A stretch of DNA of 64,000 nucleotides from Escherichia coli (GTDB lineage: Bacteria > Pseudomonadota > Gammaproteobacteria > Enterobacterales > Enterobacteriaceae). How positions within the stretch are numbered: position 1 is the first letter of the stretch; each line of letters begins with the position of its first letter. Shown here in pieces: positions 6,339 to 10,640 of the stretch. Below the pieces are notes generated by a model, which was not told the DNA's origin, did no database searches, and worked only from the letters and a program-made list of their open reading frames with translations. The stretch lies in NCBI RefSeq assembly GCF_048403405.1, contig NZ_CP183129.1; one strand, given 5' to 3'. The position numbers and the translations under genes are program-made.

Positions 6339-6890
6339 ATGCAAGATTCCATTCTGACGACCGTAGTGAAAGATATCGACGGTGAAGTGACCACGCTGGA
6401 GAAGTACGCCGGTAATGTGCTGTTGATTGTCAATGTCGCCTCAAAGTGTGGCTTAACGCCGCAATATGAACAGTTGGAGAATATTCAGAAAGCCTGGGCC
6501 GATCGTGGTTTTGTGGTGCTGGGATTCCCGTGCAACCAGTTTCTGGAGCAAGAACCGGGTAGCGATGAAGAGATTAAAACTTACTGCACCACTACATGGG
6601 GGGTGACGTTCCCGATGTTCAGTAAGATTGAAGTTAATGGCGAAGGACGTCATCCGCTGTATCAAAAATTGATTGCCGCAGCGCCGACTGCAGTCGCGCC
6701 GGAAGAGAGCGGATTCTATGCCCGTATGGTCAGCAAAGGTCGTGCACCGCTGTACCCTGATGATATTTTATGGAATTTTGAGAAATTTTTAGTTGGCAGG
6801 GACGGATTGGTCATCCAGCGTTTTTCCCCGGATATGACGCCGGAAGATCCCATTGTGATGGAAAGCATTAAACTGGCGTTGGCAAAATAA
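6339..6890 (+). CDS. btuE: Glutathione/thioredoxin peroxidase BtuE
   Basis: 183 aa with the glutathione-peroxidase family motif [21 protein letters not shown]...LGFPCNQF. Confidence 0.92.
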
Positions 6891-7639
6891 TGTCTATTGT
6901 GATGCAGTTACAGGATGTTGCGGAATCTACCCGCCTTGGGCCGCTTTCTGGCGAGGTTCGGGCTGGGGAGATCCTGCATCTGGTGGGGCCGAATGGCGCG
7001 GGTAAGAGTACCTTACTGGCGCGAATGGCCGGAATGACCAGCGGTAAGGGAAGCATTCAGTTCGCGGGGCAACCACTGGAAGCATGGTCCGCAACAAAAC
7101 TCGCGCTGCATCGCGCCTATCTTTCACAACAGCAGACGCCGCCGTTTGCAATGCTGGTCTGGCACTACCTGACACTGCATCAGCACGATAAAACGCGTAC
7201 CGAACTACTGAATGATGTCGCAGGGGCGCTGGCTCTTGATGACAAACTCGGACGTAGCACCAATCAACTTTCCGGCGGCGAATGGCAACGCGTACGTCTT
7301 GCTGCGGTGGTGCTGCAAATCACACCACAAGCCAATCCCGCAGGCCAATTGCTGCTTCTTGATGAGCCGATGAACAGTCTTGATGTTGCGCAACAAAGTG
7401 CATTAGACAAAATTCTGAGCGCGCTGTGTCAGCAAGGACTGGCGATTGTGATGAGCAGTCACGATCTCAACCATACATTGCGTCATGCGCATCGGGCGTG
7501 GTTGCTAAAAGGTGGAAAAATGCTGGCCAGTGGACGCAGGGAAGAGGTGCTCACGCCGCCAAATCTGGCGCAGGCCTATGGGATGAATTTTCGCCGTCTG
7601 GATATCGAAGGTCACAGAATGCTGATTTCGACCATCTGA
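6890..7639 (+). CDS. btuD: Vitamin B12 ABC transporter ATP-binding protein
   Basis: 249 aa; Walker [10 protein letters not shown], signature [12 protein letters not shown], Walker B LLLLDEP; its ATG shares one base with the btuE TAA (TAATG). Confidence 0.93.
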
Positions 7640-7716: not shown

Positions 7717-8181
7717 ATGCGTTTCTGCCTTATTTTGATCACAGCACTGTTTCTGGCCGGGTGTAGCCACCATAAAGCACCGCCGCCAAATGCCAGACTT
7801 TCTGATTCGATTACCGTTATTGCCGGTTTGAACGACCAGCTACAGAGCTGGCATGGCACGCCGTATCGTTATGGTGGCATGACGCGGCGCGGTGTGGACT
7901 GTTCGGGGTTTGTGGTTGTGACGATGCGCGATCGTTTCGATTTGCAGCTGCCCCGAGAAACTAAAGAACAAGCCTCTATCGGCACGCAAATTGATAAAGA
8001 CGAGTTGCTGCCAGGTGACGTGGTCTTTTTCAAAACGGGCTCCGGACAAAATGGTTTGCATGTAGGTATTTACGATACCAACAACCAATTTATCCACGCC
8101 TCTACCAGCAAGGGAGTGATGCGTTCCTCACTTGATAATGTCTATTGGCAGAAAAATTTCTGGCAGGCGAGACGAATCTAG
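7717..8181 (+). CDS. nlpC: NlpC/P60-family lipoprotein (peptidoglycan endopeptidase family)
   Basis: 154 aa; lipoprotein signal with lipobox LAGC; P60 Cys-peptidase motif DCSGFV. Confidence 0.9.
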   Translation: MRFCLILITALFLAGCSHHKAPPPNARLSDSITVIAGLNDQLQSWHGTPYRYGGMTRRGVDCSGFVVVTMRDRFDLQLPRETKEQASIGTQIDKDELLPGDVVFFKTGSGQNGLHVGIYDTNNQFIHASTSKGVMRSSLDNVYWQKNFWQARRI

Positions 8182-8192
8182 TATGTCGAAAA

Positions 8193-8221
8193 ATTGACGG
8201 CGATGATACATCGCCGTCAAT
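8193..8221 (+). terminator. Hairpin after nlpC (probable terminator)
   Basis: Perfect inverted repeat ATTGACGGCGATG-ATA-CATCGCCGTCAAT followed by a short T tract. Confidence 0.5.
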
Positions 8222-8427
8222 TTACTCCAGAATACGGTAGTATTTTGCAGACAAAAATTCCGTAAATGGATTATTCGTTTATAATCAGGATAATCTAAAA
8301 AAAGGACCCCTGAAAAAGTGGTTAACATGGAACAAATGAAAGTTACTCCTTCTGTAATTGTTATGTCTTATGGCCTCATCCCTTTTAGCCGGATACTGAA
8401 AAACATCCTTCGAGAGGGACGGTTACC

Positions 8428-9141
8428 ATGAAGATTTTTTTGGAGAATCTTTATCATTCTGATTGCTATTTCCTGCCGATAAGAGATAACCAGCAAGACC
8501 TTGTCGGCGTTGAGTTAATTACCCATTTCTCCAGTGAAGATGGTACGGTTCGTATCCCGACGAGTCGGGTTATAGCGCAACTTACCGCGGAGCAACATTG
8601 GCAATTATTTTCAGAGCAGTTGGAATTACTAAAATCATGCCAACACTTTTTTATTCAACATAAACTCTTTGCCTGGCTTAATTTAACGCCACAAGTGGCT
8701 ACATTATTATTAGACAGGGATAATTACGCGGGCGAACTATTAAAATATCCGTTTATTGAACTGTTGATTAATGAGAATTACCCGCATCTCGATGAAGGAA
8801 AAGATAATCGCGATCTTTTGTCCTTATCGCAAATGTATCCCCTTGTGTTAGGTAATTTGGGCGCAGGCAATAGCACAATGAAAGCGGTTTTTGATGGTCT
8901 TTTCACCCGCGTCATGCTGGATAAAAGTTTTATTCAGCAACAAATCACGCATCGCTCCTTCGAACCGTTTATTCGTGCGATCCAGGCGCAAATTTCCCCA
9001 TGTTGCAATTGCATCATCGCGGGGGGCATTGATACGCCAGAAATAATGGCACAGATTACCCCCTTTGATTTCCATGCTCTCCAGGGATGCCTGTGGCCTG
9101 CCGTTCCTGTAAATCAGATAACGACGTTGGTTCAGCGATAA
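8428..9141 (+). CDS. ydiV: EAL-like anti-FlhD4C2 factor YdiV
   Basis: 237 aa beginning MKIFLENLYHSDCYFLPIRDNQQDLVGVELITHFSSEDG; AT-rich gene at the position expected between nlpC and selO. Confidence 0.88.
   Translation: MKIFLENLYHSDCYFLPIRDNQQDLVGVELITHFSSEDGTVRIPTSRVIAQLTAEQHWQLFSEQLELLKSCQHFFIQHKLFAWLNLTPQVATLLLDRDNYAGELLKYPFIELLINENYPHLDEGKDNRDLLSLSQMYPLVLGNLGAGNSTMKAVFDGLFTRVMLDKSFIQQQITHRSFEPFIRAIQAQISPCCNCIIAGGIDTPEIMAQITPFDFHALQGCLWPAVPVNQITTLVQR

Positions 9142-9164: not shown

Positions 9165-10640
<1,476 letters not shown>

Follow-up and report, generated by a model that had tools for sequence, protein, structure and literature searches.

The window analysed here is a stretch of 64,000 nucleotides (nt) of the Escherichia coli genome (assembly GCF_048403405.1, contig NZ_CP183129.1), and all coordinates are given relative to it. 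According to the RefSeq annotation it carries btuD (6890-7639), nlpC (7717-8181), ydiV (8428-9141) and selO/ydiU (9204-10640), all on the plus strand, as are the leader features described below. ydiV, also named rflP, encodes the anti-FlhD4C2 factor that decides on the building of flagella in enteric bacteria and is linked also to iron uptake, virulence and antibiotic tolerance; the protein encoded in the window is 99% identical to protein P0001. Upstream of ydiV, the presumed controlled gene, lies a short upstream open reading frame (uORF) that ends on the ydiV start codon, and the role of this uORF is the subject of this work. The window matches E. coli strain 104 with 100% identity over the query, and positions 8241-8486 are identical in K-12. 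In MG1655 the uORF occupies 1792112-1792017 on the minus strand (a longer form starts at 1792121), and the RefSeq record of that strain has no annotated feature between rflP and nlpC.

The original prediction described an ORF of 34 codons that opens at ATG 8327-8329 and runs into ydiV. Its coordinates are exact: the ORF reads MEQMKVTPSVIVMSYGLIPFSRILKNILREGRLP, and its TGA (8429-8431) overlaps the ydiV ATG (8428-8430) as ATGA (8428-8431) within CCATGAAG, as is read directly in the sequence. The Shine-Dalgarno sequence before ATG 8327 is weak, as had been stated, with a duplex energy of −3.0 kcal/mol. The same frame can also be opened at GTG 8318, which gives 37 amino acids, or at ATG 8336, which gives 31. 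In a single genome alone, an ORF with an ATGA overlap is weak evidence and unremarkable genome-wide; when the nlpC-ydiV spacer of 246 nt was shuffled 5000 times with its dinucleotides preserved, 3.2% of the shuffles contained an ATG-initiated ORF of at least 31 codons that ended in an ATGA overlap.

Comparative data were obtained from 62 ydiV loci, one genome per species, that were gathered with an alignment of 19 diverse YdiV proteins; later counts use 63 loci for the start site and 66 loci for the positions of GGA motifs. Over the 30 codons upstream of the ydiV ATG, the uORF frame is free of stop codons in 54 of the 62 Enterobacteriaceae loci, whereas the other two frames are stop-free in 9 and 10; the expectation from shuffled sequence of the same composition is 0.17. 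Conservation of the frame across Enterobacteriaceae had been named beforehand as a check, and the outcome is strongly positive. A start codon followed by at least 29 open codons stands exactly at −92 from the ydiV ATG in 51 of 63 loci, most of them with a Shine-Dalgarno sequence of the AAGGA/AGGGA type in front. The alignment shows here a conserved block of AAGGA (or AAGGG/AGGGA), 5-6 nt and ATGAAA. Buttiauxella instead has TTG or GTG at −92, behind AGGGA; the type of start codon has changed and its position is kept. The ORF is retained in all of 13 representative lineages that share 27-64% pairwise nucleotide identity over the 92 nt, and three held-out loci that were fetched later also fit: E. 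fergusonii (31 codons, ATG at −92), Yokenella (34 codons, start at −101) and locus L069 (31 codons, Shine-Dalgarno duplex of −6.4 kcal/mol). Within the species, 5397 of 5417 complete E. coli genomes carry the 131-nt uORF region with at least 99% identity. The open frame, the start site, the spread over lineages and the held-out loci together mean that the uORF is not a product of chance; the reservation made at first, that it may be fortuitous, is therefore rejected.

The end of the ORF is kept as well. It has exactly 31 codons and an ATGA end in Escherichia, Citrobacter, Intestinirhabdus, Enterobacter, Kosakonia, Trabulsiella, Pseudenterobacter and others. In Salmonella, the C. amalonaticus group and C. 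sedlakii it has 30-31 codons and ends in TAATG or TGATG; here the stop is in the same frame one codon earlier, mostly as tandem stops. In Buttiauxella and Dryocola the ORF counts 33 codons if it opens at an upstream ATG, and 31 if it opens at TTG/GTG. In total, about 50 loci show either the ATGA overlap or TAATG/TGATG, and the remaining ORFs end between −16 and +17 of the ydiV ATG. Most apparent exceptions retain the start at −91/−92 and are frameshifted, ending at −16 (E. albertii), −7, −6, +14 or +17. A TGA over the ydiV start is found in 60 of 62 loci, in several of them as tandem TAA-TGA or TGA-TGA. This is uninformative by itself, because the second codon of ydiV (Lys, Ile or Asn) fixes the near-universal A at +4.

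The alignment also bears on the question of which start codon is used. The conserved ATG at −92 stands behind a conserved Shine-Dalgarno sequence, and therefore the conserved start in the window is ATG 8336 and not ATG 8327; the conserved leader ORF is thus 8336-8431, with 31 codons (MKVTPSVIVMSYGLIPFSRILKNILREGRLP) and TGA. Its Shine-Dalgarno sequence, identified by its spacing of 5-6 nt from ATGAAA, is ATGGAA at 8327-8332, for which the ancestral form would be AAGGA. At this place E. coli reads ATGGA; AAGGA is found in E. coli E69 (L005), E. albertii and most genera. ATG 8327 arises through the A-to-T change, which at the same time lowers the duplex from about −5.4 to −3.3 kcal/mol, compared with −4.7 to −9.7 kcal/mol in most genera; a few further lineages, E. 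fergusonii among them, also show ATGGA. ATG 8327 is thus a lineage-specific in-frame extension inside the degenerated Shine-Dalgarno sequence of ATG 8336. It adds three codons (MEQ, 8327-8335) that are found in E. coli, the cryptic clades and E. fergusonii. Likewise, the weak Shine-Dalgarno sequence of the uORF is a derived feature of E. coli, since most other genera have a good AAGGA or AGGGA.

Selection on the peptide itself is slight. The pooled ratio of nonsynonymous to synonymous polymorphism (pN/pS) of the uORF is 0.64 (range 0.43-0.79 in seven clades); ydiV has 0.28, and the same DNA gives 1.02 and 0.80 when read in its other frames. Variable sites are distributed nearly flat over the three codon positions of the uORF (7:8:12, 13:15:19 and 13:7:13), and in ydiV they are concentrated at the third (7:6:28 and similar). 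The best-kept codons are M1, K2, S8, M20, P21, G28, L29 and A30; G28 to A30 overlie the Shine-Dalgarno sequence and spacer of ydiV, and M20-P21 overlie GGA motifs. Peptides of different genera are nearly unalignable. The uORF thus bears the signature of an ORF selected for being translated in a fixed geometry and not for its product.

The reading that we favour, and that we hold to be probable, is that the uORF is genuine and under selection, and that as a leader ORF of the ydiV/rflP mRNA it controls ydiV translation in cis by termination-reinitiation, with the ribosome-binding site of the uORF as the regulated point. What is conserved under selection is the ORF, its Shine-Dalgarno sequence, the 92-nt distance and the stop/start overlap; the peptide is nearly neutral. 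As in other coupled uORFs, the stop lies over the main start, and the ORF has its own start codon and ribosome-binding site, the latter weakened in E. coli. Coupling or uORF-mediated control of ydiV had been suggested for the 34-codon ORF; this idea is partly supported, since conservation of the frame makes a cis-regulatory, coupled uORF the best reading, and the start at 8327 is replaced by 8336. Translation in vivo, a positive sign of the coupling and an action of CsrA at the uORF Shine-Dalgarno sequence are inferred.

According to this model, ribosomes would load at the uORF Shine-Dalgarno sequence and ATG 8336, in E. coli possibly also at ATG 8327, and translate 31 codons whose sequence would hardly be important. 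Termination at the UGA that overlaps the ydiV AUG would then hand the ribosomes over to the ydiV start, so that YdiV synthesis would follow the rate of initiation at the uORF. In Escherichia, translation of the uORF could additionally unfold the initiation region of ydiV. The Shine-Dalgarno region of ydiV (GAGAGGGA, 8412-8419, duplex −8.3 kcal/mol) lies within codons 26-28 of the uORF, and in the predicted E. coli fold its partner is UCCCUUUU at 8379-8386. The pairing value for the initiation region of ydiV is 0.76 in E. coli and 0.63 in shuffled sequence, and the predicted energy of opening it falls from 15.1 to 10.1 kcal/mol when the body of the uORF is held unfolded. Pairing with the uORF body is above shuffles in Escherichia only (0.76-0.87 vs about 0.6).

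Among the systems known, uof-fur of E. coli is the closest. There the small RNA RyhB represses translation of the uORF of fur and thereby controls fur, as summarised where Vecerek et al. 2007 is cited (PMC6191717). In both cases a short, unremarkable ORF stands in the leader of a regulator gene. Synthesis of Fur depends on translation of the uORF and a trans factor acts at the ribosome-binding site of the uORF; by analogy we propose the same for ydiV. In contrast to uof-fur, the geometry at ydiV (92 nt, ATGA overlap) is conserved over at least 13 divergent lineages, and whereas RyhB acts on uof, a small RNA or protein acting at the ydiV uORF is a candidate only. Termination-reinitiation coupling of overlapping gene pairs has reportedly been described by Huber et al. 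in 2019. Such pairs share with the ydiV leader the 4-nt ATGA overlap (or TAATG/TGATG) and a downstream Shine-Dalgarno sequence inside the upstream ORF. They consist, however, of two protein-coding operon genes, whereas the partner of ydiV is an ORF of 31 codons with a near-neutral peptide, which would make it a device for ribosome delivery or sensing. The uORF is apparently an undescribed member of the regulatory leader ORFs; we found no paper that joins ydiV/rflP with a uORF, upstream ORF or leader, and an earlier mention in Wada 2011/2012 is not excluded.

A candidate for the factor that acts at the uORF is CsrA. At 66 loci, GGA occurs at fixed distances from the ydiV ATG. The cluster at −100 to −96 (55 of 66) is the GGA within the uORF Shine-Dalgarno sequence (8329-8331), and the cluster at −125 to −116 (52 of 66) is a second conserved AAGGA/GGA motif about 25 nt upstream of that Shine-Dalgarno sequence (8302-8306, GGA at 8304-8306), a candidate CsrA site. 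Further clusters are at about −140 (39 loci), −40 to −36 (29 loci) and −30 to −26 (28 loci); the last two overlap codons M20-P21, and the window has a GGA inside the uORF body (CCGGAU, GGA at 8391-8393). The leaders of glgC, pgaA and cstA are repressed by CsrA and carry several GGA sites, one of them over a Shine-Dalgarno sequence. The ydiV leader likewise has at least two GGA motifs, positionally conserved and one of them in a Shine-Dalgarno sequence, and CsrA has been reported on rflP mRNA. The fixed spacing is reminiscent of such multi-site leaders and makes CsrA a candidate ligand. The difference is that the GGA-bearing Shine-Dalgarno sequence belongs to the uORF and not to ydiV; therefore, CsrA would act via coupling, and the GGA-bearing ribosome-binding site of the uORF, with the second GGA about 25 nt upstream, would be a likely target of CsrA or other factors. 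CsrA is known to regulate translation of YdiV (PMC4173784) and to repress rflP, partly by binding rflP mRNA (bioRxiv 10.64898/2026.07.10.737737). That ydiV is controlled after transcription and is poorly translated in E. coli (PMC4173784) also speaks for the favoured reading.

Coupling presupposes that the uORF is on the transcript. In S. Typhimurium the transcription start of rflP was placed at −230 by 5'-RACE, and read-through transcripts from nlpC were also reported (bioRxiv 10.1101/2020.05.29.124750). The Salmonella uORF (L066 1409-1501, MMTLQLVSEVTSVSVRSDWVANSALTMGLA) starts at −92, downstream of that position, and thus lies inside the 5' untranslated region (UTR). In the window, conservation upstream of the uORF reveals a motif, TATAATCAGGATAATCT, at 8280-8296, which is a candidate −10 region or protein-binding site. 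TATAAT at about −148 together with CAGGATAAGCT is kept in Escherichia, Citrobacter, Salmonella and Intestinirhabdus, and CCAGGATAA additionally in Enterobacter and Buttiauxella; about 24 nt upstream stands AAAACTGG-TAT. Upstream conservation of TATAATCAGGATAAGCT extends from Escherichia to Salmonella and partly to Buttiauxella. A promoter of ydiV or a site for a transcription factor could lie at 8280-8296. If the conserved TATAAT/GATAAT at 8280-8294 is used, transcription in E. coli would begin upstream of the uORF; a scan for the sigma-70 consensus called no promoter on the plus strand, the 8280-8296 motif included.

Several observations weigh against termination-reinitiation at a selected uORF. 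Six loci (L027, L030, L045, L048, L058 and L060) keep ydiV and are without the uORF, and a few E. coli genomes have a 1-nt insertion that joins the uORF to ydiV. ydiV has its own Shine-Dalgarno sequence and its annotated start is used in vitro, so that coupling may not be obligatory; in the portion of the INRI-seq supplement that covers ydiV, the annotated start has high in-vitro counts and zero in the column taken as in-vivo Ribo-RET. Outside Escherichia the ydiV initiation region shows no conserved occlusion (mean of 28 lineages 0.61 vs 0.59 in shuffles), and RNAalifold found 0 pairs, hence no consensus structure, in the leader alignment. Older bioinformatic predictions, as far as they are cited in bioRxiv 10.1101/2020.05.29.124750, put the E. 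coli transcription start about 70-80 nt upstream of ydiV, inside the uORF. The uORF is absent from the list of novel E. coli small ORFs of Stringer et al. 2021, whether looked for by gene name, coordinate or peptide, and ydiV is barely expressed under the conditions used there, whereas after dipyridyl its mRNA rises 23-fold in E. coli; a supplement on Salmonella small ORFs likewise has no match to the uORF peptide. Finally, simple coupling leaves the conserved length of 31 codons (92 nt) unexplained.

The main rival is one that we regard as rather unlikely. Here the uORF is a repressor or a sensor: terminating ribosomes would block initiation at ydiV, or the speed or stalling of ribosomes on the uORF would report nutrition and, as in an attenuator, set ydiV translation and Rho termination; in E. 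coli, termination may be slow at Pro-UGA. With 31 codons, the conserved length roughly matches the ribosome exit tunnel, P21 is retained through four different codons, and the E. coli uORF ends in Pro-UGA. Hayes, Bose and Sauer are said to have identified Pro-UGA in 2002 as a context of slow termination. Such an ending is, however, present in only 8 of 49 distinct sequences. A repressor would also fit the good Shine-Dalgarno sequence of ydiV and the use of its start in vitro, combined with the finding that E. coli ydiV is transcribed yet poorly translated; in Salmonella its translation is good (PMC4173784). Salmonella has much YdiV when the medium is poor, and this nutrient response is partly post-transcriptional (PMC4173784). 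Term-seq of E. coli K-12 revealed a Rho-dependent 3' end at MG1655 1791935, 85 nt into ydiV, and a Rho termination region further into the gene at MG1655 1791758 (PMC7815308 supplements). A hairpin of 10 bp inside ydiV (8474-8509, fold z = −2.83) is followed, to 8513, by the position that matches this 3' end, which suggests premature termination within ydiV in K-12; Rho-dependent ends within ydiV fit its sparse translation.

What speaks against a sensor is first the peptide. A search for the signature of a ribosome-arrest or sensor peptide found no conserved arrest motif; M20, P21 and G28-L29-A30 are absent in E. coli and Salmonella, and pN/pS is 0.64. Sensor leader peptides are known from tnaC-tnaA, speFL-speF and mgtL-mgtA, and SpeFL has 34 amino acids. 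The ydiV leader resembles these: its short uORF is of similar length, the 5' UTR is long, the gene is under tight control and Rho termination follows downstream. It differs in that conserved alternative RNA structures are lacking as well as an arrest motif, and in that the stop of the uORF overlaps the main start, which is atypical for sensor leaders. A further member of this class is toiL-topAI, whose sensor leader peptide gates the downstream gene and Rho termination (PMC12121999). Moreover, coupling by stop/start overlaps is usually positive, which argues against a block by terminating ribosomes.

E. coli of sequence type 131 (ST131) becomes hypermotile, like ydiV knock-outs, through transposon insertions in the spacer that precedes ydiV, on the nlpC side (PMC5425062). 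Loss of hemK (prmC, whose product methylates release factors) or of the elongation factor P (EF-P) modification genes yjeA and yjeK has the same effect (PMC5425062). These phenotypes may be connected with the Pro-UGA end that the uORF has over the ydiV start; this is an idea only.

Below a repressor or sensor in likelihood come, in descending order, a trans-acting peptide, an untranslated RNA platform and chance. It is improbable that the uORF encodes a small protein of about 31 amino acids whose target in trans is, for instance, YdiV, FlhD4C2 or the membrane, and that the overlap merely ensures co-expression. Such a protein would account for a pN/pS below 1 in all seven clades (other frames 0.8-1.0), for the retention of S8, P21 and A30 with synonymous variation and for the occasional calling of the E. 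coli peptide by gene callers, as a nameless hypothetical protein. However, the peptides can hardly be aligned across genera and have no conserved hydrophobic segment, five of them searched against Pfam and NCBIfam gave no match, frameshifts that change the C terminus are tolerated, and the best-kept codons coincide with RNA motifs, namely the ydiV Shine-Dalgarno sequence and the GGA sites.

These RNA motifs could be all that is conserved. In that case the leader would be, for example, a CsrA platform or a structure, and the open frame an untranslated by-product, for which GGA at five conserved positions, the reported binding of CsrA to rflP mRNA (bioRxiv 10.64898/2026.07.10.737737) and a synonymous divergence in the uORF below that of ydiV, which indicates constraint at the nucleotide level, can be put forward. 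We consider this very unlikely. An RNA leader leaves unexplained why stops are lost in one frame only (54 vs 9-10 of 62), why the start codon varies in type and not in position, why a Shine-Dalgarno sequence stands at the correct spacing and why the frame always closes at the ydiV AUG. Nor is there a consensus structure or a known family: Rfam gave two chance matches far below the gathering score. The whole E. coli leader folds no better than shuffles (z = −0.59). A helix drawn by hand over the ydiV Shine-Dalgarno sequence (ATGCCGG with CTGGC, CCC with GGG) is indistinguishable from shuffles, its pairing being 72% compared with 68%. Chance in an A+T-rich spacer is extremely improbable. In its favour are the probability of 3.2% for a single sequence and the near-universal A at +4, which is owed to the second codon of ydiV; conservation of the frame across lineages of near-random nucleotide identity refutes it.

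The level of YdiV is known to be set partly after transcription, and E. coli transcribes the gene but hardly translates it (PMC4173784). It is tempting to speculate, although we rate this as rather unlikely, that the uORF is the missing post-transcriptional switch of this flagellar brake: initiation at the uORF or the progress of ribosomes on it would report the nutritional or translational state, by way of CsrA or ribosome speed, and would set YdiV synthesis and Rho termination in ydiV. The change of the Shine-Dalgarno sequence from AAGGA to ATGGA, possibly together with the Pro-UGA end, would then contribute to the poor translation of ydiV in E. coli, and thereby to nutrients acting on motility in opposite ways in E. 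coli and Salmonella. Irrespective of this proposal, a conserved leader ORF is a concrete cis element that can be mutated to study post-transcriptional control of ydiV, and it implies that a regulatory cistron may be present or absent in the ydiV reporter fusions and promoter maps published so far. The leader is also a clean example of a uORF selected for translation rather than for its product, detected by conservation of the frame alone. A 2026 preprint describes YdiV as a de-UMPylase that opposes YdiU/SelO (bioRxiv 10.64898/2026.02.09.704795), which, if true, would broaden the consequences of a control of ydiV translation; selO/ydiU is encoded directly downstream of ydiV.

Some observations on individual genomes may be added. 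In GCA_903972355.1 (L070 283-430) a T inserted after GAAAAA (window position about 8408) removes the stop of the uORF and fuses it in frame with ydiV; the fused product, P0002, is called as a protein of 274 amino acids, and its cluster has 14 member sequences. P0009 is another frameshifted fusion of the uORF with ydiV. A programmed frameshift that unites the two was considered and dropped, as the fusions seen are rare 1-nt insertions in single assemblies. E. albertii (L006 2371-2520) has the strongest Shine-Dalgarno sequence of the uORF (about −10 kcal/mol) and a 1-nt deletion, by which the uORF ends at −16, inside a degenerated ydiV Shine-Dalgarno sequence (AAAAAGG). The YdiV proteins themselves (P0010-P0076) diverge fast: identity to E. 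coli YdiV is 49% in E. fergusonii, 75-82% in the cryptic Escherichia clades and about 53% in Salmonella.

At the other end of the spacer, 3' of nlpC, a hairpin with a 15-bp stem (8191-8223, −22.7 kcal/mol, z = −6.66) is followed by a short run of T. The two differences to K-12 within it (8195 T/G and 8219 A/C) are a compensatory pair, by which the stem is kept as T:A or G:C.

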